Source of the DNA: Candidatus Parcubacteria bacterium
GTDB lineage: Bacteria > Patescibacteriota > Patescibacteriia > UBA1558 > GWA2-36-10
Reading direction: 5' to 3'
Assembly: GCA_018669975.1 (NCBI GenBank)
Contig: JABHSK010000002.1
Span: forward strand, 5,535-69,534
Length of the DNA: 64,000 bases
Shown: positions 6,087 to 33,709 of the stretch, piece after piece
Position numbering within the stretch: position 1 is the first letter of the stretch
How the letters are laid out: each line of letters starts with the position of its first letter
Notes under the pieces: model-generated
Database searches by the model: none
The model's input: the letters and a program-made list of their open reading frames with translations, nothing else
Told to the model about the DNA's origin: nothing
Translations under genes and position numbers: made by a program

Positions 6087-6122
6087 TTATATAAAATAAT
6101 AAACAAAAATAATTAAACATCC

Positions 6123-8813: not shown

Positions 8814-8819
8814 ATATTT

Positions 8820-11800: not shown

Positions 11801-14800
11801 TGCCACACTTGGTGACACTACCTCGTTTATCATATTCAGTACAACTAGAAATATCATCACAGAGCACATCATATTGTTGTGTATCTGGATTAAATTCACT
11901 AGAGGATGACTTACATGCCAACCATTCAGCACATTGCCTACTCTTGTTTACCTTGATAATTGTATTAGCATTACAACCCACGTCACCATTAGCACAAATA
12001 TCTGGGTTAACTGGTTTATCAAAATATACATTCTTATTATAAGTAGTAGAAGCATTGTACAAAGAATCTACGCCTGCGTGTCCTGAACCCCAATTATTAG
12101 TGTCATAGAAAAGCATACAACCACTATTTCTATCCACATCAACACAACTCTTATAATCTATATTATTATTATCAAAATAATGATAATTCTTACATGACAC
12201 ACCGTTTATCCATTCTCCACCGCCAGTCGCATTCATTATTAAAACACACGTCATACCACCCACACCAGCATAGACAGCACCAGTACCGTCAACACAAGCG
12301 ACAGTATCTCCATCTTTAAGTCTTGGATCACAGCCAGGCGGGTCAAAAGGATCTTTAAATGTAGTACATAGGTTAGCTGTCTCTGGACACTCCGCTGCCC
12401 AACGATCTGGCTGGAAATCAACTATGTAATCTAAATACTCAAAATCAGATTGATCAAAATTAAAGTCCCCGTTATCACTACAACCTATCGGATCTATACC
12501 ATCTCCCAATGTATGAGTTTGGAACCAACCAGTAAATGGCACATACTGACCAGAAAGCATCCTAACATGATTATTTTCACGAAAGGAACAAGTCTTATTA
12601 CCTGGATCCTTAAAGTAATAAGTACCTTTAGACGAACCATAGGTTTCACAATCTAATGCTTCAGATACACATAGAGTATTCTCATATTGATCTGGATCAT
12701 TAAATTTATAAACCGTACTAAAGCCAGTAATCGCGTTGGCATTAGCCTTGTCTACTTTTGGTAGCCCAAGCTCCGAACAACCCTTAAACTGTTGCGGACA
12801 ATATTTGGATCTATCTGGTACCAAATAATCTAAACTATCTCTTGACACAGTAATCTCTGCTGGTTCTGGAGGCACTTCTAGATTAAAGGTTTCTTCAAAA
12901 GGATTGGTAGAATTATGTGTATCAATCACCGCCATACAACCTATCTTGTCTTCTCCACAAAGTTTTTCAAATGATTTTAAGTTATATAATGAGCCGTTCC
13001 TATCCCGATAAGCTTGGCAACCTAAATGAAAGGCAGAATAAGGACTATCGCAGGAAGCCGGCGTGCTCCAGGTATCTTTCCTTACATAAATATGATCTGT
13101 CACTTCACGCAAGGTGACGTTGTCAAAATAGACACTATCAACTCCATTGAATGTAAATGTTAATCCAGTCGTGGTGAAATCAAAATTTAAAATATCCTCT
13201 TCTGTAATAGCCACTGTATAAGGATGCCAATCACCACCTTGTATATTATTAAAGCTAGCAATCAGCGTGCTCGTGGCCATACTACCAATAGTAACGTCTA
13301 GTGTTGTTAAATTACTATTATTTCGCAGCCACCATGACAACTCATATTCTCTATTTCCTTGTAGCTGATTGGATAAATCACGATCAACACTTGTGTTTAC
13401 AGCATTGAGTTGCAACTTCATTGAATGTCCTTCATTCATAACAGATTCATTGGACATATCCAACGATCCCCAAAATGTTACCCAAGGATCATAGGTGCCT
13501 TCTTCAAAAGTGTCAGAAAGTATAGTTCTTAGATTATTTCCAGTATTACCCTTGTAGGCACGACAACCACCACTTTGTTCTCCACACTCTTCACTTAAAC
13601 TAGGAATAGCACTATACAATGCACCAGTTAAAGTACGGCGATAAGTATGACAATCATCACTAGCAAATATAACTCTGTCCTGCAGGCGCCAATAAGAATC
13701 TCCGTTGGTGTCAAAAAACTCTCTACAATTCGGATTATTTTCTGGATCATCTAATATAGTAGCTGTTTCTGGACCACAAGCAGCCATAGGGAAATTTCCA
13801 TTTGTAGCAGGTGCATCATCAATACATAAAATTCCGCCCCGTTGTACATTAGTACAAGGTGGTTGACCTTTACCAGCTATTGTCCGATTACTCTCTAAAG
13901 TATGCCAAGTTTTAATCTGATAACCAGATACGTCTTGACCTTCCCAAGTATAATAAGTGATTCCTAAATCATCAGCCACACATTGACGCAAATATGAAAA
14001 ATATTCTTTACCTTCACCGCCATCAGCCACCTCATCTAGGTTAGTGAACTCTTCGCAGCCAGCTTCTGAAGCTGGGCAAGTCTCGGCTGTATCAGGTATA
14101 AAATTATAATAATTAACTGCGTAATCTCCCTCGATATTATCAAAAATTGTGGTTTGTTCCGCAAAAGAAGCATAACCAACACACTCCTGAGGGCATAGAT
14201 CATCCTGTGAAATCACTGCTGGCACCATTGGTCCACCAGCTACTGGTCTATATGCCTGGCAACCAACCTCATCTTCACTACACATGATTCTCTCGCCACC
14301 CATATAGATAGTACTACCAACTCCATACTCGGAGTATGGCGTAGCACTCATACCTTCTTGGCTAACTATTTCTAATTTAATATTATCAAACCACATAGCT
14401 GAAGGAGCAGCACCATTTGGATTAACACCACCATAAGACATTACATCTATTCGCCCTCCACTAGTATTTTCATCTGTCATAAACAGACAACCAGCCCTTA
14501 ACCAACTAAAATCACTCGGTGGCACAAATCTCAAATCCGCATTATTTGGATGACCACTACCACCAAGTAAACAAGTACCAGTGCTTGTTGCTGGTCTTGC
14601 ATTATTTGTCGCACCGTTACAGTCGCCAGTCATATCACATAATTGTACAGCTACACGTGCTCCATAATCAGCTGGCGCCACATATTGAGCAGCATCAGCT
14701 GATATAATATAATATGTATTTGGCAGTAACTCCACATTCATCTGCAATACTTCTTCTGCATAAGGCTCTGTATTCCAATTACTTGCTCCCCAAGTATAAC

Positions 14801-16973: not shown

Positions 16974-17013
16974 ATTTTTATTTTCAATAATTTATTATGA
17001 TTATTTTATATAA

Positions 17014-17829
17014 TTACTCCTCTGTACTCTGATTATCTTCTTCGCTGATACCCAATAATTGAAAGCCTATTGATATCAACTCCTGATCCGTCATTTGATT
17101 AATTCTCTCTTTGTCAGCACCAGGCTGTGCCAATAAAAAATTTCTGACTTCTTCTGAGCTGACTTCTTCTGATTGCTCTGAAGCAGCCATGTTTTCAGAA
17201 ACAATTTTAAAAAGCATCAACAAATCTTCGTCTGACAGTTTATTTACTTCCTCTTGAGGCATGCCACTCTCTATCAAAATCCTTCTAAAATCTGTGGCGA
17301 TGGCACCTTGCAAGGTCAAATCCTCATCCAATTTAACATCTTCTATAACTTCTACAAGTCTAGTTTTTGGAGTAATTAAAGCCAATAAACTACAATCCTC
17401 TCCTTCTGGACATAGTGGATCAGCGCCAGAACTAACTTCATCAAAATCTGATACGCCATCGCTATCTGTATCATCTATAAAGATACTAGTGTAATACTGG
17501 TACATCTCCTGATAATCAGTCAGACCATCTTGATCTGTATCTCTTTCTTGTAATTCAGCAATAGTCACTTGAGCATCCCCCTGTTCTTGTAATTGCTCCT
17601 CCAGCCAATCGGGCCTCTCATAGGCTACTGGACCAGCTATATTTCCATACAAATACCAAAAAGAAAAAGCGACAATTGCCAATCCTAATATAATAAATAA
17701 TAAAACATGCTTCTTGTCACTTTGATTTTCTTGTAGAGATCTATTGATATCCTCTGCTGAGTATCCTTCTAGCTCGTCGGACAATCCATCCTCTGTGAAC
17801 TCATCTAGTTTGTGTAACTTTTTTTTCAT
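17014..17829 (-). CDS. membrane-anchored protein with TSP3-like calcium-binding repeats (first gene of operon)
   Basis: single TM (LLFIILGLAIVAFSFWYLY) after a charged N-terminus; DTDQDGLTDYQE and DTDSDGVSDFDE..GADPLCP match the thrombospondin type 3 DxDxDGxxDxxD(NCP) pattern. Confidence 0.6.
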   Translation of the reverse strand: MKKKLHKLDEFTEDGLSDELEGYSAEDINRSLQENQSDKKHVLLFIILGLAIVAFSFWYLYGNIAGPVAYERPDWLEEQLQEQGDAQVTIAELQERDTDQDGLTDYQEMYQYYTSIFIDDTDSDGVSDFDEVSSGADPLCPEGEDCSLLALITPKTRLVEVIEDVKLDEDLTLQGAIATDFRRILIESGMPQEEVNKLSDEDLLMLFKIVSENMAASEQSEEVSSEEVRNFLLAQPGADKERINQMTDQELISIGFQLLGISEEDNQSTEE

Positions 17830-20615: not shown

Positions 20616-21779
20616 TTATTTTAATAACATCACAAACCAAGCTAAAATGGCTGCTACTATAAAAGCTGCCTGCAAAGGGAAAAATACCAACAAAATAGCA
20701 ATCACTATCAAACTAAGCACCTTACCAGCATGAATAGCCATTTCCTTTATTAAGGTATATTCATCGATATAATGCCCTCTATCGGCAGCTTTTTCATAAA
20801 CTAAGGTCTCTATAGATGTCCTTAATACTATACTAGCTAAGGTATGATACAGGGAAGATAGGAATACTTGCATGGCTGTGCCAACCGCTATTTTTATCAA
20901 CCATGCGCTAGAATTTAAGACAGTACCTATTTTTACTAGTTTAGTTTTTTTTATTCTGTCCAATAAATTACCGATAAACAATCGAAGAATTAGACCCAAA
21001 AGTAAAATAGCACCAGTCAATAACCCTAAAGCTTTAAATTGTTCATCTAAAATACTAAAAATAAACAATGGCCAAAATAAACCATTAATAGTCGTTACTG
21101 CTCCATCAGACATATATGCCACTACCATACGGCGATTGAATGGATGTACGAGGTATTTAAAGGTCTCTTTATATGTCCAAGTAACTTCTTCCTTTACTGT
21201 TGGTAAAAATGCAAAAGGAATCAACGAAAATATACAAACAAACAGAGCAATAAGTGCTAAAGTACCAAAGTCCCATCTATCCAGAACAAAACCACCAATC
21301 ACTGGTGCAATAATAGATAAAAAAGAAGCTGCTGACCAAATTACACTAAATTGTTTACCACGATTTTTTTTGCTAGAAAATTTAGCAGAATCCGTTTGAA
21401 ATGGTAGCCAAAAAAAACTACGAATTGCTATTAAGAAAAAAGCAGACAAAATAGCATACTTAACTGGATCTTCAGGTAATTTATAAAAAGCAAGTAAATA
21501 AGGAATTCGCAAAACCACCCCAATGATTAAACTAGTTTTGAGTCCAATTATATTCATCACCCTAGCTGTCCAAGGTACCAAGAAAAAATAACCAAAAGAT
21601 ATAGAGACCCACCAAGCGATAACTGCGTGGATACTACCCAACTCTTGATACAAAAAGATTGGCAAAAATAATCCAAAAATATTAAGACCAAAATCTAGGG
21701 TCATCTTACCTGCCCATAAAGATAGCAAGTCTTTAGAAAAACCTAATTTTTTGTAGTCATCTACTAAATGAAAATGCAT
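20616..21779 (-). CDS. MFS-type transporter (12 TM), paralog of 18801..19982
   Basis: 387 aa polytopic protein with similar helix arrangement and conserved C-terminal block to the neighbour. Confidence 0.55.
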   Translation of the reverse strand: MHFHLVDDYKKLGFSKDLLSLWAGKMTLDFGLNIFGLFLPIFLYQELGSIHAVIAWWVSISFGYFFLVPWTARVMNIIGLKTSLIIGVVLRIPYLLAFYKLPEDPVKYAILSAFFLIAIRSFFWLPFQTDSAKFSSKKNRGKQFSVIWSAASFLSIIAPVIGGFVLDRWDFGTLALIALFVCIFSLIPFAFLPTVKEEVTWTYKETFKYLVHPFNRRMVVAYMSDGAVTTINGLFWPLFIFSILDEQFKALGLLTGAILLLGLILRLFIGNLLDRIKKTKLVKIGTVLNSSAWLIKIAVGTAMQVFLSSLYHTLASIVLRTSIETLVYEKAADRGHYIDEYTLIKEMAIHAGKVLSLIVIAILLVFFPLQAAFIVAAILAWFVMLLK

Positions 21780-21797: not shown

Positions 21798-24632
21798 TTA
21801 TTTTACTACGATGCTGATAATTCTATTTTTAATATGAATAAATTTTATCAGTTCCTTGTCCTCAATATATTTTTTTATTTTATCCTGCTCTAAAATTTGT
21901 TTTTTAATGTCTTCACTAGGCTCAGTGTCATGTGGTAGTTCAATTTCACTACGAACTTTACCATTAACCTGAATTCCAATGGTCACCAGCTCATCTTGAG
22001 CTAATTTAGCATCGTATTTAGGCCATTTTTCATGGGCCAAACTATCTTTGTGTCCCAATTCACTCCACAACTCCTCAGCCATATGTGGTGCAAAGGGTGC
22101 TAATATTAATACAAATTTTTCAAACACCTCGTTGTTTATTTTGTCTTGTTTTTCCAAAGCATTTGCCAAAATCATCAATTGGGCTATAGCTGTATTAAAA
22201 CGCATAGCTACAATATCTTCACCAACCTTCTGAATGCTCTTATGTAAAACATTGTTAATGTCTACATTATCAGCTTTTTCATCTAGCTTGTCCTGCAAAT
22301 CCCAAGCTCTATTTAAAAATCTATAAATACCAGCTACACCTTTATCGTCCCAAGCAATTGATTGATCAAACGGACCCATAAACATTTCATACATCCGCAC
22401 AGTATCTGCACCATACCTACTAACATAACTATCGGGATTAATAACATTGCCCTTAGATTTTGACATCTTGATGCCACCCTCACCTAAAACCATACCCTGA
22501 GCAGTACGCTTTTTGTATGGTTCACTACCAACCTTCTTTGGTATTACTCCAATGTCATATAAAAATTTAAAAATAAAACGAGAATACAGGAGATGCAAGG
22601 TAGTATGCTCCATGCCACCATTATACCAATCAACTGGCAGCCAATACTCGGCTTTTTTCTTATCTATTAACTCCTGATTATTTTTGGGGTCACAAAAACG
22701 AATAAAATACCAGTTAGACCCAGCCCAATTAGGCATTACATCAGTTTCTCTTCTTGCCTGACCACCACAGGACGGACACTCTGTTTTTACCCAGTCCTCT
22801 GCCTTGGCTAATGGTGATTGACCATCATCGGTTGGCTTAAAATCTTTAATATCTGGCAACTCAATCGGCAAATCATCCTCAGCCACTGCCACCCAACCAC
22901 ACTTATCACAATTAACCATCGGGATTGGCTCACCCCAATAACGTTGGCGAGAAAAAATCCAATCATGCAATTTATAATTAACAGCAGCTTTACCTAATTT
23001 ATTTTTTTCAAGCCACTTAATAATTTTTTGTTTAAACTCTGCTGTCAACAAACCATCAAATTCACCAGAATTAATAGCTCGACCCTCACCACCGTAGGCT
23101 CCATATTTATCTAAATATATCAATATACCTATTTTATTATACTCATGACTTACACTCTGTAAAGCTTCTTTTTCACTCAACCAAATTATTTCATGTTTAG
23201 CCTTTTCTGTATCAGAAATATCTTGAGCTGACTCGTCATCTAGTTCTAATAAAATAGGATTGTCCACTCGATAACGCCAAACGTCTTTATTTTCAGCATA
23301 AAAATGCTCCTCTGTTTTATTACCCAATCTTTTTATTGCCTTTGCTTTATAGCCAGTTTCTTCAAGAACTTCCCGTTCAGCAGCCTGCTCTGGTGTCTCT
23401 CCTTCTTCTATACCACCAATGACAGGTGCTAACCAATTAAATTTTTTCCATTTGAGTAATAAAAATTTGCCATCTGACTTACGTTGTATGGTAGCTGAGA
23501 TTGTCTCCCTATATTCCTCGCCATCTCTAACTTCACCGTCGACTGGCATCACCACATCCCTAATTTCGATGTTATATTTTTTAGCAAATTCATAATCACG
23601 TTGATCGTGACCTGGTACAGCCATAATCGCCCCCGTACCATAGCTCATCATCACATAGTCAGCTACAAAAATAGGTATCTCTTCATTGTTTACCGGATTA
23701 ATAGCTTTAAGACCTTTTAATTCAACACCTGTCTTGTCTTTATTTAAATCTGCTCTTTCTAAATCAGATTTCTTTTTAGCTGCAACAATATACTTTTTGA
23801 CTTCTGCTAAATTACTAATCTTGCCTTCCAATTGATGGATAGCTATGTGTTCTGGTGCTACCACCATAAAAGTAGCTCCAAATAAAGTGTCTGGTCGAGT
23901 AGTAAAAACTTCTAGTATTTCCTGACTGTCTTTTATTTTAAATTGCACTTCTGCACCTTCGCTACGACCAATCCAATCTACTTGCTGTTTTTTTATTTGT
24001 GGTAAAAAGTCTACTTGTTCTAAATCATTTATCAATCTATCAGCGTATTCTGTAATCTTGAGCATCCATTGCTCTTTTTCCTGTTTAACCACTTCCCCAC
24101 CGCAACGTTCACAGGCACCACTAACCACTTCTTCATTGGCTAGACCAATTTTACAAGAAGTACACCAATTAATATTTTCTTTAGCTTTATAGGCCAGTCC
24201 TTGTTTGTGCATTTGGATAAAAATCCACTGGGTCCAACGATAATAATCTGGATCTGTGGTAGAAAAACTTCTATCCCAATCAAAACTTAAGCCGATGTCC
24301 TTCATCTGCTTTATGTAGTTGCTTATATTTTTTTCAGTAGTTATTTTGGGTGGTGTATTTGTTTTAATAGCATAATTTTCGGCTGGCAAACCAAAAGCGT
24401 CAAAGCCCATTGGATACAATGTTTGAAATCCCTGCATGCGTTGATATCGACATAATACATCCATAGCAGTATAAGAACGTAAATGTCCGGTATGTAAACC
24501 ATCCCCAGAAGGATAGGGAAATTCTACTAAGCCATAAAATTTTTGTTTGCCTTTATCATCAACTAAAAAAGTATTGTTTTCGTCCCAATACTGCTGCCAT
24601 TTTTTTTCAATAGTATCTGCTTGGTATTTCAT
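21798..24632 (-). CDS. leuS: leucyl-tRNA synthetase with inserted Nudix-like domain
   Basis: HTGH (GLHTGHLRSY), CP1 editing motif TTRPDTLFGATFMVVAPEH, KMSKS (IKMSKSKGN) and anticodon-binding regions all present; an extra ~130 aa carrying the Nudix box GGIEEGETPEQAAEREVLEETGY sits between the HDQRDYEFA and NYKLHDW blocks. Confidence 0.95.
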   Translation of the reverse strand: MKYQADTIEKKWQQYWDENNTFLVDDKGKQKFYGLVEFPYPSGDGLHTGHLRSYTAMDVLCRYQRMQGFQTLYPMGFDAFGLPAENYAIKTNTPPKITTEKNISNYIKQMKDIGLSFDWDRSFSTTDPDYYRWTQWIFIQMHKQGLAYKAKENINWCTSCKIGLANEEVVSGACERCGGEVVKQEKEQWMLKITEYADRLINDLEQVDFLPQIKKQQVDWIGRSEGAEVQFKIKDSQEILEVFTTRPDTLFGATFMVVAPEHIAIHQLEGKISNLAEVKKYIVAAKKKSDLERADLNKDKTGVELKGLKAINPVNNEEIPIFVADYVMMSYGTGAIMAVPGHDQRDYEFAKKYNIEIRDVVMPVDGEVRDGEEYRETISATIQRKSDGKFLLLKWKKFNWLAPVIGGIEEGETPEQAAEREVLEETGYKAKAIKRLGNKTEEHFYAENKDVWRYRVDNPILLELDDESAQDISDTEKAKHEIIWLSEKEALQSVSHEYNKIGILIYLDKYGAYGGEGRAINSGEFDGLLTAEFKQKIIKWLEKNKLGKAAVNYKLHDWIFSRQRYWGEPIPMVNCDKCGWVAVAEDDLPIELPDIKDFKPTDDGQSPLAKAEDWVKTECPSCGGQARRETDVMPNWAGSNWYFIRFCDPKNNQELIDKKKAEYWLPVDWYNGGMEHTTLHLLYSRFIFKFLYDIGVIPKKVGSEPYKKRTAQGMVLGEGGIKMSKSKGNVINPDSYVSRYGADTVRMYEMFMGPFDQSIAWDDKGVAGIYRFLNRAWDLQDKLDEKADNVDINNVLHKSIQKVGEDIVAMRFNTAIAQLMILANALEKQDKINNEVFEKFVLILAPFAPHMAEELWSELGHKDSLAHEKWPKYDAKLAQDELVTIGIQVNGKVRSEIELPHDTEPSEDIKKQILEQDKIKKYIEDKELIKFIHIKNRIISIVVK

Positions 24633-24753: not shown

Positions 24754-26139
24754 TTGATATTTAACCAAAGTAATATTAGTCTATTTGTACAAAAAATAAT
24801 AAATAAACTAGCCATAAAAACAGCTGATGGATTAATTTCGCTCAAGAAAAAAGCGATATCTGGAGCAAAAATATTTGGCATTGGCATATTATTAATAGGA
24901 AAATTTACCATATTTCCTATTATTTTGTTTAGCTATAAAAACATCTTGCGTATCAAGATTAAAAGCAAAAATCTTAATATCAAAAATCTTAATTATATAA
25001 TTTTTTTAAAAAAATACCTACCGCGTATTGGTGTAGCCACAGTATTATTAACTGTTGCCACTAATGGTATTGTCGCTCAAAGTTATAGTGCTGATGAATA
25101 TGCCAATCGCACCCTCCTCTCCACCCTAGTTCAAGCTGACGAAGAACAATGGAGTGAAATAATAGAAGAAAAAGGTCCGGCCATCAACCAACCACGTGTG
25201 GTTAGCTATCTGCAAGACCAGGGCAATGTACAAGAAATAATTATCGATAGTCCCTTAGAGGATACTAGTATAAATACTGGTAGTACGGATGTATCACCAG
25301 ATTCAGCCAGTCTAGTTTTAATTAATCCTGAAGATACTGAATCCAGTGAAGCTCAAGATGACCCTACTGCCATAAGGAAAGAAACCATTACCTATGTGGT
25401 TCAACCTGGTGATGTTCTAGGAAAGATAGCTCAAGAATACGGCATTAGTGTCAATACTATTCTTTGGGAAAATGATCTCAGCTGGAATAGCACCATTAGA
25501 CCAGGTCAAAAACTAAATGTTCTAGCAGACTCTGGTATAAATTATGAGATTAAATCTGGCGATACTGTCTTAGCGATTGCCAAAAAATATCAGACTGAAG
25601 CCAAGGAAATTGTAGAAATCAATAAACTAGCTGACGCTGGTGATATACAAATTGGTGATCTACTATTTATCCCAAATGGTGTTAAGCCAACTGCAGTTGT
25701 TTCTTCATACAAGCCTAAACCTGCTCCTGTATCTGCCTATAGTGATAAAGTAGTCCCTCCAGCCGCCGATACTAATACTGGCACTAAATTCCTTTGGCCT
25801 TTAACCAGTCATCGTATCACCCAGTATTATCACTGGGGACACAGTGGCTTGGATGTTGGCGATAAAACTGGCAATCCTATCTACGCAGCCGAAGCCGGTA
25901 AAATTGAACGATCCGGCTGGTCTAGGGGTTATGGCTACAATGTAGTTATCAACCACGGCAATGGCCTCAAAACTATTTATGGTCATGCTAGTCAACTTCT
26001 AGTAAAGGCCGGTGATTCTGTTGCTCGTGGAGAAACCATTGCTCTAATTGGTAACACTGGCTGGTCTACTGGACCCCATCTTCACTTTGAAGTTCGAGTT
26101 AATGAAGTTAGAAAAAACCCTTTAAACTATATTAAATAA
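24754..26139 (+). CDS. LysM-LysM-M23 peptidoglycan endopeptidase (start uncertain)
   Basis: two LysM motifs (YVVQPGDVLGKIAQEYGIS; YEIKSGDTVLAIAKKYQTE) and a C-terminal M23 domain (HSGLDVGD...HGNGLKTIYGH...GPHLHFEV); N-terminal 100 aa hydrophobic/basic, true start may be downstream. Confidence 0.8.
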   Translation: MIFNQSNISLFVQKIINKLAIKTADGLISLKKKAISGAKIFGIGILLIGKFTIFPIILFSYKNILRIKIKSKNLNIKNLNYIIFLKKYLPRIGVATVLLTVATNGIVAQSYSADEYANRTLLSTLVQADEEQWSEIIEEKGPAINQPRVVSYLQDQGNVQEIIIDSPLEDTSINTGSTDVSPDSASLVLINPEDTESSEAQDDPTAIRKETITYVVQPGDVLGKIAQEYGISVNTILWENDLSWNSTIRPGQKLNVLADSGINYEIKSGDTVLAIAKKYQTEAKEIVEINKLADAGDIQIGDLLFIPNGVKPTAVVSSYKPKPAPVSAYSDKVVPPAADTNTGTKFLWPLTSHRITQYYHWGHSGLDVGDKTGNPIYAAEAGKIERSGWSRGYGYNVVINHGNGLKTIYGHASQLLVKAGDSVARGETIALIGNTGWSTGPHLHFEVRVNEVRKNPLNYIK

Positions 26140-26196
26140 ACTATTCAAATTAAAAAAACAGCCACTCTATCGAGCGGCTGTTTTAAAATATCACTA

Positions 26197-27876
26197 TTAA
26201 TTACAAGTACTCATGCCACCCTTATTAATTCGGAAATTCCAATCACCTGGACACAAGCAATGTTCTATATCCGGCAAACAAGCTCCTGGATCAGCAGTAA
26301 CGTCCCAATTACAATCATTTTCACTACAAGTAAATAAATCAGTATGCATTAAACATTCTTCTTCCGTTTTTGGTACTGGCAATACCCACTCTCCACCAGC
26401 ATCTGCGCAAGATACCTCCGACATTCCCAAGGTGTCTAGGCCATCAAATGGGTCCAAACTACCACCCATCAGTTCCTCCATTTTAGCTTCATAAAATTCT
26501 TGATCAAGCTCGCCGTCGCCCAAAGGATTATAACCATTATCTACTTCCTCACCATCTGGATATCCGTCTCCATCAGTATCAGGATTATTTGGATCTGTTT
26601 CAAATAACATAGTTTCAGCTGAGTCTGGCAATCCATCTCCATCTGTATCTGTTTGATCCATCATAGCAGTCATAACATCCTCATTAATATCTACACCCAT
26701 CATATCTGAGGCTACTCCGGCCATTACTTGACTTATAAGCTGCTCAACTGTAATAGTTTTATCTGGTACCTGGATATTGATTGGCTCAGCTGCATAAAAC
26801 ATGCTCTCTACACTAAAAGTCAGCGTACTTTCTGGTTCACTATCATTTGGTAAAGCTAAATTATAAGCAGCTATTTCAACGCCCTGCAAAGCCTTGGTCT
26901 TGGTATTAACCCAAGCATAAATATCTATCTGTGCTAAAGCTCTCTTCATGTCAGCCCAATCTTCTGGCTCTTCCTGTTGAAATTTAAGAAATTCCTCTTG
27001 CATACTCTCTTTAGTCTTAGCCCTCTCATTATCTGGTATATCAAGATAGGTATCAAAGTGTTCTGTTATCACTAACATTAACTCTCCCAATTTATTTGGC
27101 TTAATATTATATTGAATCTTTTTTAATTTACCATCTGGAGTTTCCATGGTCTGATGTGGATCACTAATCACAAAGGCTTTTACATCCTTTATTTTCTCCA
27201 TTAATTCCCCTGTACTTTTTTGAAACTCTTCCATCTGTGCATTATAGTCTTCCTCTGGCTGCTGCATTTGAGGGTTGAGTGCATTCAAGCTATCTGTATT
27301 GAACTCTATCCAATCTTTACCAAGCTCTATAGGAAAAGGCAAACCCAAATCATCTAAACCACTAATATTCGGCTTTATATAAAAAGTCTCCCCTATTTTC
27401 TTATATTCCATAGCTAAATCCAGTCGTATTTCTTCACTAGCATCAACAAAATAATTGGCCTCCCCTGTAAAATTTGTGCCCACTGTGTGTTGCTTTGCGC
27501 TTCCACTAAATTCAACCTTTTGACTAATAGGCATCAACAGCTTAACTGCATTCTCTTCTGCTTGAGTCATCCTTAAAGCAAAAGATGTTTCAGTTTTAAA
27601 ATTAGTCAATGTACTACCCCAATTCCAAACCATTTGATTATGCAATAATAGTGCTTGTCCTTTGGCATAATACCACCAGCCACCTACACCCAGCAAAACT
27701 ATAACCACAATAGGTACAATTATCAACCAAAGTTTTTTGCCTTTACCACCAGAATATTCTGGTGGTGGTGCCTGAGCTATCGGCTGAACCTGCGGCGGTG
27801 TTTGTACAGGCTGAGGTTGTGGTGCCTGGGCTATCGGCTGCTCACTTGCATTTACTGCGTTGTTTTGATTCTCCAT
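26197..27876 (-). CDS. membrane-anchored Pro/Gln-rich protein with TSP3-like repeats and Cys-rich C-terminus
   Basis: N-terminal QPIAQAPQPQPVQTPPQVQP tract, single TM, DTDGDGLPDSAE..DTDGDGYPDGEEVDNGYNPLGD, C-terminal 11-Cys module. Confidence 0.6.
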   Translation of the reverse strand: MENQNNAVNASEQPIAQAPQPQPVQTPPQVQPIAQAPPPEYSGGKGKKLWLIIVPIVVIVLLGVGGWWYYAKGQALLLHNQMVWNWGSTLTNFKTETSFALRMTQAEENAVKLLMPISQKVEFSGSAKQHTVGTNFTGEANYFVDASEEIRLDLAMEYKKIGETFYIKPNISGLDDLGLPFPIELGKDWIEFNTDSLNALNPQMQQPEEDYNAQMEEFQKSTGELMEKIKDVKAFVISDPHQTMETPDGKLKKIQYNIKPNKLGELMLVITEHFDTYLDIPDNERAKTKESMQEEFLKFQQEEPEDWADMKRALAQIDIYAWVNTKTKALQGVEIAAYNLALPNDSEPESTLTFSVESMFYAAEPINIQVPDKTITVEQLISQVMAGVASDMMGVDINEDVMTAMMDQTDTDGDGLPDSAETMLFETDPNNPDTDGDGYPDGEEVDNGYNPLGDGELDQEFYEAKMEELMGGSLDPFDGLDTLGMSEVSCADAGGEWVLPVPKTEEECLMHTDLFTCSENDCNWDVTADPGACLPDIEHCLCPGDWNFRINKGGMSTCN

Positions 27877-27894
27877 AAATATTATTAAATTTTA

Positions 27895-28908
27895 TTAAAA
27901 AATATTAAATAATTTACCAGCAAAGGTAAAATAAATAAGTATAAACATCAGTGCTTCCGTTCTGGTCATTTTTTTATCTATAAATGCTAACCACATCAAG
28001 AAGAATGCGCCAACTAAAAATGATCCCAAGAGCATAAACATTTCTTTACTAATGGTTAATTCAGTAAATAAACCAACAGCACCAAAAATAACAAATAAGT
28101 CAAAAATATTAGACCCTATAATATCTCCAATCACCATATCAAAATTACCTCTACGCGCAGCTGAAGTGGCTACTAAAATTTCAGGCAAAGATGTGCCTAG
28201 GGCTACTATAGTGGCAGCTATTACTGAAGTGCCAATTCCCAACATTTGAGCAATATGAATAACTGAATCTACTACAAATTTTGAAGAAAAAGATACCACT
28301 GCTAAACTAATAACTAAAAACAAAACAATTTTAATAATTGGCCTATCTTTTTTAGTTTTAATTTTCTCCTTTTTCTCTATTTCAGAGACTTCACTCTTTA
28401 TCTCTTTTTTAAGTTGCTTTTCATATTCCTCTTTGACACTCTCCTTGGCTGATTTCTGAATATGATAAGCATAAATAATGTAAACGATATAACCCACTAG
28501 AAAAATGCATGCTTCTATTATATTAAATTTTCCGTCAGACAAAGCAATGATAAGTAAAAAAATAGCTGCCCCAAAAAATGGCAGATCATTAGATACTATA
28601 TCCCAATTAAAAATTGCTTTTCTTTTACTAAATAAAACCGCTATACCCAAACCTAACAATATATTAACTATCACTGTACCTATCACATTACCAGCCAAAA
28701 ATTCTACCTCGCCTTGATATACAGCAAAAATTGAAGTGGTTAACTCAGGTAGAGATGTACCAACTGCTACTATCAAAACACCAACAATAAAATTAGGTAG
28801 TTTTAAAAGCTTACCTAATTCCTCAGCATAATCGGTAAAGTAGTCAGCTGACTTGATAAGCATCCACAAGCTAGCTGCAAAAACTATAAGCCAAATCATC
28901 ATAAACAA
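27895..28908 (-). CDS. Ca2+/cation antiporter, CaCA (YrbG-like) family
   Basis: two alpha-repeats with GTSLPEL motifs (GTSLPELTTSI; GTSLPEILVAT), about 10 TM. Confidence 0.75.
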   Translation of the reverse strand: MFMMIWLIVFAASLWMLIKSADYFTDYAEELGKLLKLPNFIVGVLIVAVGTSLPELTTSIFAVYQGEVEFLAGNVIGTVIVNILLGLGIAVLFSKRKAIFNWDIVSNDLPFFGAAIFLLIIALSDGKFNIIEACIFLVGYIVYIIYAYHIQKSAKESVKEEYEKQLKKEIKSEVSEIEKKEKIKTKKDRPIIKIVLFLVISLAVVSFSSKFVVDSVIHIAQMLGIGTSVIAATIVALGTSLPEILVATSAARRGNFDMVIGDIIGSNIFDLFVIFGAVGLFTELTISKEMFMLLGSFLVGAFFLMWLAFIDKKMTRTEALMFILIYFTFAGKLFNIF

Positions 28909-28962
28909 TCTTTATTAAAAAATTCATTTATATTTTACCATAAAACTGTCTTTTTTAAAACT

Positions 28963-28989
28963 AAAAACCCCCACTTGATGGGGGTTTTT
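28963..28989 (-). terminator. rho-independent terminator (bidirectional hairpin) after the CPA antiporter gene
   Basis: aaaaaccccc-acttgat-gggggttttt: 5-bp GC stem flanked by A-run and T-run. Confidence 0.55.
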
Positions 28990-29005
28990 ATATTTTACAA
29001 TAAAA

Positions 29006-30328
29006 TTATTTAACTGGGACTTCCTCTGCTTTAACTTGTTTCATTACTTCTTTCTCAAACAATATTGCACCCAAAACAGTTACTAGAATAACACCCAGTA
29101 AAGCGGCAGCGGCAAAAGTCTCATCTAAAGCATGATTAGCTAGAGCAACAGCTACAAAAACTAAGCCAACTTCACCACGAATAGACATGGCCAAACCAAC
29201 TAATTTTCCTTCTTGCTTATTCTTAAATAAATATTTAACAATATACTTACCAGCAAAACCAAGCACAGTAAATAAAATAGCCCACATCCAAACCTTAAAA
29301 TCAGTTAATGCGGCTCGTGGTAACATGGTACCAATACTGACTAGGAACCCACCTACAAAAATATGCATGTAGCCTTCAATTTTATCCCAAGCTCCGTGTT
29401 TAATTTCATTATCAACTTTTGATAAAACTACACCGATACCAAAAGCACCCAAAACAGGCTCTAGACCTAGCAAGGCTGCTGCAGAGGCACCTAACATTAG
29501 CATGCCAAAGAAAAATCTAGTAAATACACCAGTGCTATTATTACTATACTGTCTGTTCAAATAAGAAGCGATCTTATCAGCTATACCCATACTCCACAAA
29601 GCATATGTAGCTACCAAAAATACCACTACACCAATAGCCAACATTACAAAAGGATTCATACCACTAGCTTCGACTGCATGCTCACCAGCTCCAGTAGAAG
29701 ATAATTTAGCTAAAACAGTTAAAATAATAACACCTAAAATATCATCAATAACTGCTGCACCAACAATCTGATTACCAAGGTTAGTTTCCAATTTACCAGC
29801 TCGCTTCAAAGCTTCTACTGATAGACCAACTGAAGTAGCCGTAAAGATACCGCCTAAGAAAATACTTGGTACTAAACCTAAGTCTAAAACATAATATCCT
29901 AAAGCTGCAAAAGATAATAAGGGTATTAATACACCACCAAAAGCTACAGCGCTAGCAATACCAATATTCTTTTTGAGCAACTCCATATCAAAATGAAGAC
30001 CAGCCTCAAATAATATAAATAACACACCAATTAAACGGGCCAACTCTACGCCGACAGCATCTGGCTGTAAAACACCTAATACTGCTGGACCAGCAATAAT
30101 ACCCATGATAATTTTACCAGCCATTGGAGCTATACCCATAGCCTTGGCTAGGCGACCACCAAAAGTGGCAAACAATGCTAGAAATGATATATCAATCAAG
30201 ATCGGTAAGTAAGTTTTTACTTCGTGATGATGACTGAGTACTAATTTTTCTTTAACAAAATATAAAATCACTGAAATAACAGCGACTTCTAGGACAAAGA
30301 AAAACAAACCTTTTAATTTCTGATTCAT
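29006..30328 (-). CDS. monovalent cation:proton antiporter (CPA/Na+-H+ exchanger family)
   Basis: 440 aa, 11-13 TM, Gly-rich helices typical of Kef/NapA-type exchangers. Confidence 0.7.
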   Translation of the reverse strand: MNQKLKGLFFFVLEVAVISVILYFVKEKLVLSHHHEVKTYLPILIDISFLALFATFGGRLAKAMGIAPMAGKIIMGIIAGPAVLGVLQPDAVGVELARLIGVLFILFEAGLHFDMELLKKNIGIASAVAFGGVLIPLLSFAALGYYVLDLGLVPSIFLGGIFTATSVGLSVEALKRAGKLETNLGNQIVGAAVIDDILGVIILTVLAKLSSTGAGEHAVEASGMNPFVMLAIGVVVFLVATYALWSMGIADKIASYLNRQYSNNSTGVFTRFFFGMLMLGASAAALLGLEPVLGAFGIGVVLSKVDNEIKHGAWDKIEGYMHIFVGGFLVSIGTMLPRAALTDFKVWMWAILFTVLGFAGKYIVKYLFKNKQEGKLVGLAMSIRGEVGLVFVAVALANHALDETFAAAALLGVILVTVLGAILFEKEVMKQVKAEEVPVK

Positions 30329-30412
30329 ATTTATTTTTAATCTGATTAATTAATAATTTATAATAAAAACAGCAATAGTATACACTATTGCTGTAGAAAA
30401 ATCAAGTCTATT

Positions 30413-31690
30413 TTATTTAGCTATATTAGCTATACACCAATCTGGATCTGAATGATCGTTACATAACAAAGGGTCTCCCAGATTAGAAGCTACTGACGCA
30501 ATGCAGCCATCAAAATAATCACCCGTAAACATTGTTGATTTATATTTAAGGCAATCATCTGTGTTGTCTAAATAATCATAAACCGATATAGCACAAAAAA
30601 TAAAAGTATCAGGATCTAAAGAGCAGGGCTCTAATGTTTTATTATTCTTTCCAATCTTAGCCAAACAATAATCTGGCTGATTTAATGTCAGGCATTTTGC
30701 AGTATCATTATCTCTAACTGCCTGATTCTTGGTTACATTTTCTTGACAACGAAATTTTAAAGTTGTCATTGCAGAAAAACCAGCTGTCTCACAAAAATCT
30801 GAATCAAAAGCCCTATTACTAACCGCATCCAAGCAAACGTCAATACCCATTCCATCGTCTTCAACCATAGAACGGCAAATTTCTGCTGCTGCGTATTCAT
30901 CAAAATCTTCTTCTTCTAGCATCTGCTCTACTATTTCCCATTTAGCTTTAATAGCATTTGTTAAAGTATCATTAGGATTATAACCATTTATTACTTCTAC
31001 TAGATCACTGTAACCATCATCATCTGTGTCCACTTTAGTATCCTCTGCTCTATTCATTTTTTCTAAAAACAAATTGAGACCATCTTCATCTTCGTCTGTC
31101 TGCAATAATGTTAAATAATACGTATACGCATCTTCTTTGAAAAACTGACATGTACCATCCATATAAACCTGATCTTCTTCACTAAGATCTCCTTCAAAAA
31201 AAGTATAATCTTCTTGTAATTCGGTTGGAAAATATTTAATATCTTCAGGATTTTTAACTAAATAACACATGGTTAATGAAGGGAGATTCTCTCTCCGAGT
31301 ATAATCTCCGAGGAGTTCAGCCACTGTCATTCCCTCATCATCATTATGAGCTGACTCTGGAATATCACTATCATCAACATCAGATATTTGATTTCTTACC
31401 ACGCCTTCTGAAACACTAACAGTCTGCACCTCTGTAATCTCTGTCCCGCTGCCACTACCCTTTAACAAAAAATATCCAGCTAGAACTACTCCTATTAATG
31501 CAATACCAATTACAACAGCCAAAATTATGCCTTTATTAGCAAAAATCCCTGTGGAACTCGGCGCAGGGATATTATTAGCTACCTGGTTAATTGGTGGATT
31601 ATTCACTGGAACATCCACTGGGGGTGGTTGTTGTTGAACTGGTTGTTGAGGTTGAGACTGAGGCTGTTTATTCTCTATTTCTTCAAACAT
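30413..31690 (-). CDS. membrane-anchored Pro/Gln-rich protein with TSP3-like repeat and Cys-rich C-terminus
   Basis: N-terminal QPQSQPQQPVQQQPPP tract, single TM, DTDDDGYSDLVEVINGYNPND motif, 18-Cys C-terminal region. Confidence 0.6.
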   Translation of the reverse strand: MFEEIENKQPQSQPQQPVQQQPPPVDVPVNNPPINQVANNIPAPSSTGIFANKGIILAVVIGIALIGVVLAGYFLLKGSGSGTEITEVQTVSVSEGVVRNQISDVDDSDIPESAHNDDEGMTVAELLGDYTRRENLPSLTMCYLVKNPEDIKYFPTELQEDYTFFEGDLSEEDQVYMDGTCQFFKEDAYTYYLTLLQTDEDEDGLNLFLEKMNRAEDTKVDTDDDGYSDLVEVINGYNPNDTLTNAIKAKWEIVEQMLEEEDFDEYAAAEICRSMVEDDGMGIDVCLDAVSNRAFDSDFCETAGFSAMTTLKFRCQENVTKNQAVRDNDTAKCLTLNQPDYCLAKIGKNNKTLEPCSLDPDTFIFCAISVYDYLDNTDDCLKYKSTMFTGDYFDGCIASVASNLGDPLLCNDHSDPDWCIANIAK

Positions 31691-31715: not shown

Positions 31716-32135
31716 CTAAACACTATCCTGTGAATCTACATTTTGTGGTTCAACCGGCTGCTCTGGTTGAGGTGTCGGTGGAGCTTGATCCATTGTGGGA
31801 GCAGTCATAGGTGCCGCCATGGATTGGCTAGATTTTGAAATCAAGAAGAGAATACCAATCACAAAGGCTGGTCCAGACATAGCTAAAAATGATAACCAAG
31901 GTGTATCCCCCCAGGCCATCACAATATAGACAATGCCTAAAATGATAAATATAATTCCTCCTATCATCTCCTGCTTCCAGGCAATTAATAAAGCTATCAA
32001 CACCGCTATTGTTGGTGTTAAATGCATGAATAACGCTCCCCAAGAGAATTGTTCAATGTCAAAAACAAATAAAGTTACTACCAAGGTAAACATGATAGCA
32101 AAAACTCTGGGAATCCAATATAAAGTTTGATTCAT
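31716..32135 (-). CDS. small 4-TM membrane protein with Pro/Gln-rich C-terminal tail
   Basis: 139 aa; hydrophobic helices followed by APTMDQAPPTPQPEQPVEPQ. Confidence 0.5.
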   Translation of the reverse strand: MNQTLYWIPRVFAIMFTLVVTLFVFDIEQFSWGALFMHLTPTIAVLIALLIAWKQEMIGGIIFIILGIVYIVMAWGDTPWLSFLAMSGPAFVIGILFLISKSSQSMAAPMTAPTMDQAPPTPQPEQPVEPQNVDSQDSV

Positions 32136-32161: not shown

Positions 32162-32614
32162 TTAATTGTCTAAAAATATCTGATCTGGTGTCACCCAAGT
32201 GCCTAAGGGATTAACATTGCAAGCCATCGCTTCATACTGCGCTTCCTCACCACTAATAGGTTGCCCACCATGATCATATGACCAAATCACAACCTCTGTT
32301 ATAGTTTTACCACCAGTCTGACAACCTCCGTTGGTGCTATAGGGACAAGTGTTTTTAGAAAAAGTTCCTTCACTGCCACAATTAAGCTCCATTTGCTGCT
32401 CTGTCCAAAAACTACCAATATAATCTACACAATGACTCTTGTCATCAATGGTATTACAACTACCACGCACCTTATAATCTCCACTTGTTTCCTGCAGCAT
32501 ATCCTCTACCACCTCAATACCCTCGTCTATTTCTTCTTGAGTAGGTGGATTTCCATTTTTCCCACAGCCAGCTATAGCCAAAGGTAAAATCAAAACTAAT
32601 AATAATTTTTTCAT
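32162..32614 (-). CDS. Cys-rich lipoprotein
   Basis: lipobox LAIAGC after MKKLLLVLIL signal; 8 Cys in mature part. Confidence 0.6.
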   Translation of the reverse strand: MKKLLLVLILPLAIAGCGKNGNPPTQEEIDEGIEVVEDMLQETSGDYKVRGSCNTIDDKSHCVDYIGSFWTEQQMELNCGSEGTFSKNTCPYSTNGGCQTGGKTITEVVIWSYDHGGQPISGEEAQYEAMACNVNPLGTWVTPDQIFLDN

Positions 32615-33086: not shown

Positions 33087-33509
33087 CTAGAAGTCATAGT
33101 TCTCGTAGTCGAGTTCCCTGTCCAGATCTATCTGGAATTCACCGACTATCTCCGGCGGGCGATTGTCATCCATGATGACCGTCCAATAAGTACCGCCTTG
33201 CTTGGCGACCAACAACATGTGAGTAAACTGCACTTGGACGGTGTCTGCAAAGCTGGGATGGTACATGGCTGGAAAGTAATCATCGGCCGAATTTTCGATT
33301 AACGCATTGGTACTACCAACTCTGATGTTGGCATAAAAAAGTACTCGATCGAAATCATCAACGTGACTGGCCACGTACAGAGCTTCCTCCACTGAGGACT
33401 CGTGCCAGGCATAGTGATACTCAGGTGGTGTGGACTCACCACAACCAACCAACAGCAATAAAGCAATTGTAGCCCACACGAGCGCCAAACTAGTAAATCG
33501 ATACTTCAT
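33087..33509 (-). CDS. lipoprotein encoded in a GC-rich (about 50%) segment; start likely the internal MKYRF
   Basis: signal plus lipobox LLLVGCGES; ORF track gives 33087..33542 but Met12 precedes the signal peptide; base composition clearly differs from the flanking DNA. Confidence 0.55.
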   Translation of the reverse strand: MKYRFTSLALVWATIALLLLVGCGESTPPEYHYAWHESSVEEALYVASHVDDFDRVLFYANIRVGSTNALIENSADDYFPAMYHPSFADTVQVQFTHMLLVAKQGGTYWTVIMDDNRPPEIVGEFQIDLDRELDYENYDF

Positions 33510-33709
33510 GACTTCCTCCTTTTTGAGTGTTTCAGTGTACACAAATAACTACCTATATTTACACAAAACACGCTTTTTGTCAATAGTAGTAAGGGTTTTA
33601 TAAAAATAAGTATAACTATAAAAGGTCCCTATATTGACAAAAAGGCCTATTTTTACTAGGCTATCTAATTATTCCTATAGAACCTTTTAAACTAACCAGG
33701 AGGAAAATA

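Follow-up and report, generated by a model that had tools for sequence, protein, structure and literature searches.

Three families of predicted surface proteins sharing a two-loop TSP3_bac cassette in a Candidatus Parcubacteria locus

The genes termed here P1, P2 and P3 lie on the minus strand of a 64,000-nucleotide stretch of DNA (the window; contig JABHSK010000002.1) from an uncultured Candidatus Parcubacteria bacterium, a member of the Patescibacteria or candidate phyla radiation (CPR), and encode predicted type-II membrane proteins of 559 (26197..27876), 425 (30413..31690) and 271 amino acids (aa; 17014..17829). Bacteria of this group live attached to host cells, and their surface proteins are little known. 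A sequence-only reading of the window had reported these open reading frames (ORFs), which were found exactly as described, and had interpreted their products as a paralogous family. The analysis reveals that the homology among the three proteins is confined to a cassette of approximately 47-59 residues, made up of two thrombospondin type 3 repeats of the bacterial kind (TSP3_bac, PF18884), and the sequence and model comparisons indicate that P1, P2 and P3 are three distinct families, each with its own genomic context. We consider it reasonably likely that these are type-II surface families that share the cassette as a Ca2+-stabilised joint or interaction element.

The two-loop cassette

Each of the three proteins presents two D-x-D-x-D-G loops, located at residues 410 and 433 in P1, 199 and 221 in P2, and 97 and 120 in P3, the second loop starting 22-23 residues after the first. 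Scanning all six frames of the 64-kb window for D-x-D-x-D-[GN] recovered both loops of P1 and of P3, one strict instance in P2 (residue 221, the loop at 199 being a variant outside the scanned pattern) and one instance in a giant ORF adjoining P3; no further instance was detected in the window. Searches with the Pfam TSP3_bac model, for which the gathering threshold is 25 bits, assigned 39.2 bits to full-length P1 (E=6e-10), 24.8 bits to P3 (E=1.9e-5) and 14.2 bits to P2, with scores of 41.7, 31.1 and 18.1 bits for the respective isolated cassettes of P1, P3 and P2, and the model was matched by all 13 members of the P1 family. The proposal that the DxDxDG stretch constitutes a thrombospondin-type-3-like repeat is hence borne out, and can be specified as PF18884. 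A sub-threshold match to EF-hand_6 (E=0.005) was also observed on the cassette.

The P1 cassette (26512..26655, residues 408-455) reads DTDGDGLPDSAE ... DTDGDGYPDGEE-VDNGYNPLG and contains many invariant columns, the P2 cassette (30968..31102, residues 197-241) reads DEDEDGLNLFLE ... DTDDDGYSDLVE-VINGYNPND, and the P3 segment (17389..17547, residues 95-147) encompasses the cassette together with Cys residues C140 and C146, invariant in the family alignment; all three are on the minus strand. The residues D1, D3, D5, G6 and E12 are present in all six loops and D9 in five of them. Five loops are fully canonical, with acidic residues at positions 1, 3, 5, 9 and 12 and Gly at position 6, and the remaining one, the first loop of P2, has Leu in place of the acidic residue at position 9, preceded at position 8 by an Asn that is invariant in the family. 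The loop positions are invariant among 13-26 homologs per family, and the cassette is the best-conserved segment in all three families, with mean pairwise identities of 0.67 (P1), 0.56 (P2) and 0.62 (P3) as compared to 0.25-0.36 in the other parts of the ectodomains. Exactly two loops were identified in 12 of 13 P1-family, 9 of 13 P2-family and 81 of 96 P3-family members, and at least six in 106 of the 107 OmpA-type TSP3 proteins returned by the same searches. In the AlphaFold2 (AF2) models of P1 and P2, each loop is a coil followed by a short helix starting at approximately position 9, with high predicted local distance difference test (pLDDT) values, which is the classic loop-helix context of DxDxDG sites, and neither protein has Cys within the repeats. 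By analogy, the cassettes are expected to bind Ca2+, the models themselves carrying no ions.

The E(V)xNGYNP stretch that the sequence-only reading had singled out resolves into the Glu at position 12 of the second loop followed by the standard repeat tail, xxxG(T)(D)P, and is hence an ordinary TSP3_bac ending. Among the retrieved proteins GTDP was the commonest tail and GYNP the second, a ranking drawn from a sample biased by queries that themselves contained the motif. Relatives of P3 present GxDP. NGYNP was therefore discarded as a family signature, GYNP being a common tail variant whose place is taken in relatives of P2 by GHDP, GYDP or GFNP.

Three families with separate ectodomains

Pairwise BLASTP searches among P1, P2 and P3 gave alignments limited to 44-54 residues that span both loops (E=2e-6, 1e-7 and 5e-4). 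Profile-profile comparisons with hhalign, using family alignments built for each protein, returned one match per pair. These covered the cassette only for P1 and P2 (47 columns, E=3.7e-13) and for P2 and P3 (59 columns, E=1.5e-13), and for P1 and P3 (E=1.7e-15) the meaningful stretch was again the cassette, the extra columns being gap-ridden and of low identity. Aligned pairwise and as profiles, the three proteins thus correspond only in this segment, which starts at residue 408 of 559 in P1, 197 of 425 in P2 and 95 of 271 in P3. The AF2 models furthermore predict a β-rich fold with helices for P1 and an all-α fold for P2. On these grounds the paralogous-family proposal does not hold, and what persists of the shared architecture is a tail, one transmembrane (TM) segment and a two-loop cassette in all three proteins, with no homology outside the latter.

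Each protein has one strongly hydrophobic 19-residue window near its N-terminus. In P1 (GGKGKK) and P3 (DKKH) Lys residues directly precede this segment, which is consistent with an N-in/C-out topology; the topology of P2 is ambiguous on charge alone, and its C-terminal part holds 14 Cys and acidic loops. The ectodomains are acidic in all three cases, with 19-25% Asp and Glu. The single N-terminal TM segment and type-II anchoring posited by the sequence-only reading are hence very probable, based on hydrophobicity and, in P1 and P3, on the Lys/Arg residues on the N side, and P1, P2 and P3 are very probably type-II-anchored surface proteins.

The P1 family is small and exclusive to the Patescibacteria, with approximately 20 members seen, including 12 full-length relatives (27-59% identity) that all derive from Patescibacteria or metagenomes. 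Its N-terminal tail (27751..27876, minus strand, as are the other P1 segments; residues 1-42) is disordered, predicted to be cytoplasmic and 44% Pro and Gln (PQ). The TM segment and outer juxtamembrane region that follow, GVGGWWYYAKGQ (27664..27732, residues 49-71), are directly preceded by three Lys residues. This anchor has a mean pairwise identity of 0.50 versus 0.25 for the ectodomain, a value that is unusually high for an anchor and twice that of the P2 and P3 anchors, with invariant G, G, W, Y, Y, A and G residues and a G-x-G-G small-residue motif. The fast-evolving ectodomain (26749..27624, residues 85-376) was predicted by AF2, using the family alignment, to form a long antiparallel β-sheet with packed helices (pLDDT mostly 80-90). 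Pfam searches with the 13 family members did not identify any ectodomain family, TSP3_bac being the only model consistently matched, and a PDB sequence search with the P1 family profile matched only the Ca-binding stretch of Staphylococcus Bap. Foldseek searches against the PDB yielded weak matches to open-β-barrel or LolA-like folds, the best being 4egd (E=7e-4, TM-score 0.35), followed by DUF1849, MucB, an ependymin-related protein and LmcA (E=0.04-0.3); a literature search on SAOUHSC_02783, the 4egd protein, found nothing directly relevant. The C-terminal tail (26200..26424, residues 485-559) is modelled with low pLDDT, has 8 Cys and is variable, being missing in some orthologs.

P2 belongs to a second small family of the Patescibacteria, for which exhaustive HMMER searches identified approximately 14 relatives of P2 with 26-39% identity over residues ~100-420, three of them in metagenome-assembled genomes of Patescibacteria; members of the family were mapped in the loci designated L009-L011. 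P2 had seemed an orphan in a word-indexed search, which returned only P2 itself, a view that these relatives dispel. Many database proteins match P2 over residues 138-241 only. The AF2 model, based on the family alignment, is wholly helical from residue 130 to 425 (pLDDT >90). A helical domain with conserved C142 and C181 precedes the cassette (31103..31324, minus strand, residues 123-196), and an all-α repeat with one Cys per helix follows it (30416..30967, minus strand, residues 242-425). The repeat has a length of ~28 residues and contains 12 Cys spaced by 9-18 residues, of which C272, C286, C300 and C315 are invariant. Foldseek did not return any PDB match with E<0.4, the best (E=0.45) being designed helical repeats or generic TPR-like solenoids, and the family showed no consistent match to any Pfam family besides TSP3_bac, and none to Sel1 or TPR. 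In two P2-family members, P0228 and P0231, a C-terminal PDZ domain (PF13180, E=8e-12) replaces part of the Cys-rich helical repeat.

The P3 family is well populated in the Parcubacteria, with approximately 96 relatives of 240-270 aa, some of which are named by NCBI "thrombospondin type 3 repeat-containing protein". P3 has 5% Pro and Gln and 2 Cys, and is therefore neither PQ-rich nor Cys-rich. Accordingly, the Cys-rich ectodomain attributed to the three proteins holds for P1 (8 Cys in the last 70 residues) and P2 (14 Cys) and fails for P3.

A similar split applies to the PQ-rich N-terminus. Stretches of 30 residues with at least 40% Pro and Gln occur in 3 of the 69 long reading frames of the window, those of P1, P2 and a 139-aa DUF7670 protein (31716..32135, minus strand; PF24709, E=9e-22) with four TM segments and a PQ-rich C-terminal tail, which is a conserved neighbour. 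The tails are disordered (pLDDT <50), and BLASTP detected no significant similarity between those of P1 and P2 (E=0.35). Approximately half of the P1 relatives have PQ-rich tails, the remainder being rich in Asn, Ser and Thr; most P2 relatives and DUF7670 orthologs lack PQ-richness, and the tails of the DUF7670 orthologs are again rich in Asn, Ser and Thr. The feature noted by the sequence-only reading is thus present in P1, P2 and the DUF7670 protein, is absent from P3 and is not kept in orthologs. A common cytoplasmic domain was rejected on the basis of the P1/P2 comparison and of this compositional drift, and judging from sequence composition PQ-richness is a genome-specific feature of disordered tails, not a domain.

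Genes adjacent to P1 orthologs in related genomes provide an independent view of the cassette. Additional single-pass genes, encoding a protein of 301 aa in locus L006 and proteins of 457 and 559 aa in L008, carry a cassette 60-78% identical to that of P1 on unrelated ectodomains. The presence of the same cassette on unrelated ectodomains in neighbouring genes indicates module shuffling. The 559-aa protein of L008 combines a P1-like anchor (43% identity over residues 1-72) and the cassette with an ectodomain that is nevertheless unrelated to that of P1. The slot between the CaCA exchanger and M23 peptidase genes, discussed below, appears as a hot spot holding one to three tandem single-pass genes with nearly identical TSP3 cassettes; the extra genes map to L006 (1035-1940), L008 (6623-7996 and 9663-11342), L067 and L060 (1-2083). 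The 301-aa protein of L006 and the 457-aa protein of L008 share a distinct C-terminal domain.

These data bear on two alternative accounts of the likeness among P1, P2 and P3. The first, that all three are diverged paralogs of one type-II surface protein, with the architecture inherited whole and a common fold and function, would explain why a tail, a TM helix and an ectodomain with a two-loop cassette follow in the same order in all of them, and draws on the L008 559-aa protein as an instance of anchor and cassette travelling together. The ectodomain of that same protein nonetheless speaks for shuffled modules rather than for whole-protein divergence, and the 47-59 real columns of the profile-profile alignments, to which BLASTP adds nothing further, the β-rich and all-α predicted folds, the differing cassette positions, the absence of PQ and Cys features in P3 and the varying PQ content of orthologs make common descent of the entire proteins very improbable. 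The second account attributes the shared motifs to chance matches between acidic low-complexity regions, an idea that the acidic ectodomains and the 14 bits obtained by P2 alone against PF18884 might encourage. The Pfam match of P1 (E=6e-10), the family hhalign E-values (4e-13 to 2e-15), the invariance of the loop positions in each family and the restriction of the pattern in the window to the three proteins and the giant ORF leave a negligible probability for chance resemblance.

Genomic context

The gene located 18 nucleotides (nt) upstream of P1 (27895..28908, minus strand) had been proposed to encode a CaCA exchanger, an assignment that the searches confirm: its product matches PF01699 in two stretches corresponding to the Na_Ca_ex halves (E=7e-55) and scores 194.5 bits with TIGR00367, above the cut-off of 179.65, as a YrbG-type Ca2+/Na+ antiporter. 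Upstream of it lies a CPA2-type Na+/H+ exchanger gene (29006..30328, minus strand), a conserved neighbour with ~80% identity in relatives. The gaps along the series lipoprotein-DUF7670-P2-Na/H exchanger-CaCA-P1 are 26, 25, 84, 97 and 18 nt. A terminator-like hairpin follows P2 and parts it from the exchanger genes (30369..30394, minus strand), a GC-rich palindromic hairpin flanked by A and T runs lies between the Na/H exchanger and CaCA genes (28962..28990), and a terminator-like hairpin with a 13-bp stem and a T-run was located by consensus scan just 3' of the P1 stop (26155..26184, minus strand). The position of these hairpins suggests three units, [lipoprotein-DUF7670-P2], [Na/H exchanger] and [CaCA-P1], the last of which would be a probable bicistronic unit given its spacing. 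The promoter scan found 33 sites versus a shuffled expectation of 27.5±5.2, which is not above expectation, and no promoter is claimed.

The association of copies with cation antiporters put forward by the sequence-only reading is upheld for P1 across related genomes and is not sustained for P2 or P3. Of 12 informative loci, 11 have a CaCA gene upstream of the P1 ortholog, immediately so in the window and in L004/L005, L007, L056, L061, L062, L063, L064 and L065. The pairing is kept where the downstream flank differs (L056) and where the exchanger gene is that of a paralog with ~30% identity (L061, L063 and L067), and the syntenic slot of L009 is devoid of both CaCA and P1, with a P2 homolog, the Na/H exchanger and the M23 peptidase retained. 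P1 orthologs in this clade are 24-33% identical, versus 60-84% for flanking genes, which implies that P1 evolves much faster than its neighbours. In L064 (1867-3765), two CaCA paralogs, ~67% and ~31% identical to that of the window, stand in tandem upstream of the P1 ortholog; the other genomes keep only one CaCA type. An equivalent linkage for P2 was rejected, as P2-family genes elsewhere adjoin ThrRS or HD/MurC genes (L010, L011) and the L009 homolog lies upstream of the Na/H exchanger in a locus without CaCA. We know of no description of YrbG/NCX_Mj-type CaCA loci that include a conserved type-II TSP3 protein encoded downstream, and a literature search on CaCA loci with a downstream TSP3 protein found nothing.

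P3-family genes always follow rsmA and precede an ORF of 2,500-2,900 aa and a 900-1,040-aa protein with a weak match to TrbL/VirB6. In the window, the cluster (4842-17829, minus strand; also in L059 and L060) comprises P3, the giant ORF, the VirB6-like gene and a 414-aa ORF without Pfam match, and may represent a surface or secretion apparatus. The giant ORF (8820-16973) has 2717 aa in the window and 2548-2906 aa in relatives, with one CBM_4_9 match, and the ~900-aa multi-TM protein matches TrbL/VirB6 with E=2e-4. The guanine-cytosine (GC) content reaches 0.437 at 6001-8000, compared to ~0.36 elsewhere, coinciding with the hydrophilic, Ala/Gly/Arg-rich C-terminal half of this VirB6-like protein (6123-8813).

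As regards the rest of the locus, P2 is identical to NCBI protein HOB10_01335, the same locus is present on metagenome contigs of 160-173 kb, the window has a GC content of ~36% and its minus strand carries nearly all genes. A LysM-LysM-M23 peptidoglycan endopeptidase with an N-terminal membrane anchor (24754-26139, plus strand) is convergent to P1 and neighbours it in all related loci reaching past P1 except L056. Two small predicted lipoproteins (32162-32614 and 33087-33542, both on the minus strand) present the lipobox-like motifs LAIAGC and LLLVGC, and the former, with 7 Cys and no Pfam family, is probably co-transcribed with DUF7670 and P2. The leucyl-tRNA synthetase (LeuRS; 21798-24632, minus strand) contains a NUDIX hydrolase insert (PF00293, E=5e-13; ~23163-23486, residues 383-490) with the Nudix box GGIEEGETPEQAAEREVLEETG directly after the CP1 editing domain, and has 944 aa versus ~801-808 aa in most related genomes; the L057 LeuRS (953 aa) has the same insert, and a literature search on a NUDIX insert in LeuRS found no description. 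Antisense ORFs within P1 (26213-26494, plus strand) and within an MFS transporter gene (20872-21399, plus strand) are most likely spurious, because the sense genes are conserved.

Interpretation and comparison with known systems

Under the interpretation that we favour, three distinct families would each independently have kept or acquired a pair of TSP3_bac loop-helix units. Each loop would bind Ca2+ via Asp/Glu at positions 1, 3, 5, 9 and 12, by analogy with solved TSP3 and DxDxDG sites. With Ca2+ bound, an otherwise flexible acidic stretch would fold into a stiff joint that links a fast-evolving ectodomain to the C-terminal part, which is putatively a knob of Cys residues in P1, a helical repeat stapled by disulfides in P2 and a set of helical repeats in P3. 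The cassette would be the element under strongest constraint, and the variable ectodomains would probably be interaction- or target-specific. Co-transcription of P1 with the exchanger would genetically couple cytoplasmic Ca2+ export to the production of a Ca2+-requiring surface protein, with P2 grouped separately, alongside the DUF7670 protein and a lipoprotein, and P3 placed in the giant ORF/VirB6-like cluster.

Several observations weigh against this interpretation. P2 falls below the PF18884 threshold both at full length and as an isolated cassette, and its first loop is missing the position-9 acid. Ca2+ binding is a prediction from sequence, the fold assignment of P1 is weak, and the promoter and terminator scans provide consensus matches only. 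With regard to the exchanger, one or two extra TSP3 genes separate CaCA from P1 in L006 and L008/L067, and in L057 the P1 homolog is preceded by a DsbA-like gene, a fragment that had been considered as a possible CaCA C-terminus and was discarded as such. All the loci with the CaCA-P1 pair belong to a single, rather narrow clade (Na/H exchanger ~80%, M23 ~60% and LeuRS 61-68% identical), and the adjacency may hence partly reflect inherited gene order instead of selection. The pairing may indicate functional coupling or, equally, gene order inherited in one clade.

Two other roles for the cassette merit consideration. P1 could act as an accessory or sensor subunit of the exchanger, its TM and juxtamembrane region packing on the transporter and its cassette capturing or sensing exported Ca2+. 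The conservation of the pairing with two CaCA paralog types and across flank rearrangement, the joint absence of both genes in L009, the 18-nt gap and an anchor twice as conserved as those of P2 and P3, with its G-x-G-G motif, would all accord with this. Set against them are the origin of the loci in a single clade, the L057 exception and, in L006 and L008, the intervening unrelated TSP3 genes, whose anchor differs; characterised YrbG/NCX_Mj-type exchangers, moreover, function to our knowledge without accessory subunits, and we regard such a role as unlikely. It is rather improbable, in turn, that the cassette is a dockerin-like module that fixes interchangeable ectodomains in a Ca2+-dependent manner to a common scaffold, for instance the cell wall, an S-layer or the giant protein. 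Like dockerins, the cassette does have paired Ca-type loop-helix units spaced 22-23 residues apart, giant Omnitrophota proteins contain both TSP3 and dockerin repeats (bioRxiv 10.1101/2023.11.21.568195), P3 always adjoins a giant surface protein, and conservation is much higher in the cassette than in the proteins that carry it, the cassette being shared by unrelated neighbouring genes. The isolated cassettes, nonetheless, gave no Dockerin Pfam match up to E=10, Foldseek returned no dockerins, no cohesin-like partner was identified, and the tight geometry of Ca2+ coordination explains the high conservation equally well.

A broader version, which we deem similarly improbable, would have the cassette as a Ca2+-dependent docking or activation module and P1 and CaCA as a functional unit linking ion export to the display of host-interaction domains. 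In such a unit the exchanger would provide the cassette with Ca2+ at the cell surface, or P1 would act as a gate or sensor of the exchanger, and the displayed fast-evolving domain would possibly be a lipid-binding (LolA-like) one in an episymbiont unable to make its own lipids.

Were the joint interpretation correct, the combination of a single TM segment with a two-loop TSP3 cassette would offer a simple rule for finding candidate CPR surface or host-interaction proteins, with the calcium cassette, and not the ectodomain, as the conserved element, and a surface protein consistently paired with a calcium exporter would be flagged. As they stand, the results refine annotation, turning three hypothetical proteins into TSP3-pair surface proteins of three families, and introduce no new mechanism. 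The repeat is already known from Pfam, NCBI already names P3 orthologs after it, and the ectodomain families of P1 and P2 are undescribed, which is ordinary for CPR; literature searches on TSP3 proteins in Patescibacteria/CPR and on PF18884 found nothing directly relevant.

Among known systems, eukaryotic thrombospondin and COMP type 3 repeats (PF02412) share with the cassette the DxDxDG Ca2+ logic of adhesive extracellular proteins (Kvansakul et al. 2004, as cited in bioRxiv 10.1101/2023.11.21.568195). They differ in forming a disulfide-linked wire of many contiguous repeats with a C-terminal lectin-like domain, neither of which is present here, and searches of the cassettes with this 36-residue Cys-containing model gave E=0.43 (P1) and 1.4 (P3), at 9-11 bits versus a cut-off of 25. 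Dockerin and EF-hand pairs resemble the cassette in having paired loop-helix Ca2+ motifs ~22 residues apart, although EF-hands have a typical entering helix that the cassette lacks and dockerins a cohesin partner, for which no candidate was identified here; Dockerin type I (PF00404) did not match the full proteins either. The exchanger gene of the window, with its two Na_Ca_ex repeats and its TIGR00367 score, conforms to the YrbG/NCX_Mj type of CaCA. The P2 C-terminal domain presumably resembles the disulfide-stapled helical repeats of Helicobacter cysteine-rich (Hcp)/Sel1-like proteins, being likewise all-α and extracytoplasmic with regularly spaced Cys on successive helices, although the repeat has 36 residues in those proteins versus ~28 in P2, which has no Sel1 or TPR Pfam match.

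The closest comparison is with bacterial TSP3 proteins (PF18884), such as the Bacteroidota OmpA-like proteins and Myxococcus CglD and MtsD, which present the same 22-23-residue DxDxDGxxDxxE-xxxG(T/Y)(D/N)P unit, lie outside the cytoplasm and are likewise expected to bind Ca2+; CglD and MtsD were matched weakly in NCBIfam, over the repeat only. A structural precedent for Ca2+ binding by bacterial TSP3 is attributed to Dai et al. (2017, Cell Calcium 66:78), as cited in the same preprint, which also describes the giant Omnitrophota proteins. In contrast to the at least six loops of those bacterial proteins, borne as a variable linker array on β-barrel/OmpA_C carriers, P1, P2 and P3 have exactly two, in predicted single-pass type-II CPR proteins with novel ectodomains, and the cassette, devoid of Cys within the repeats in P1 and P2, is the best-conserved part of each family.

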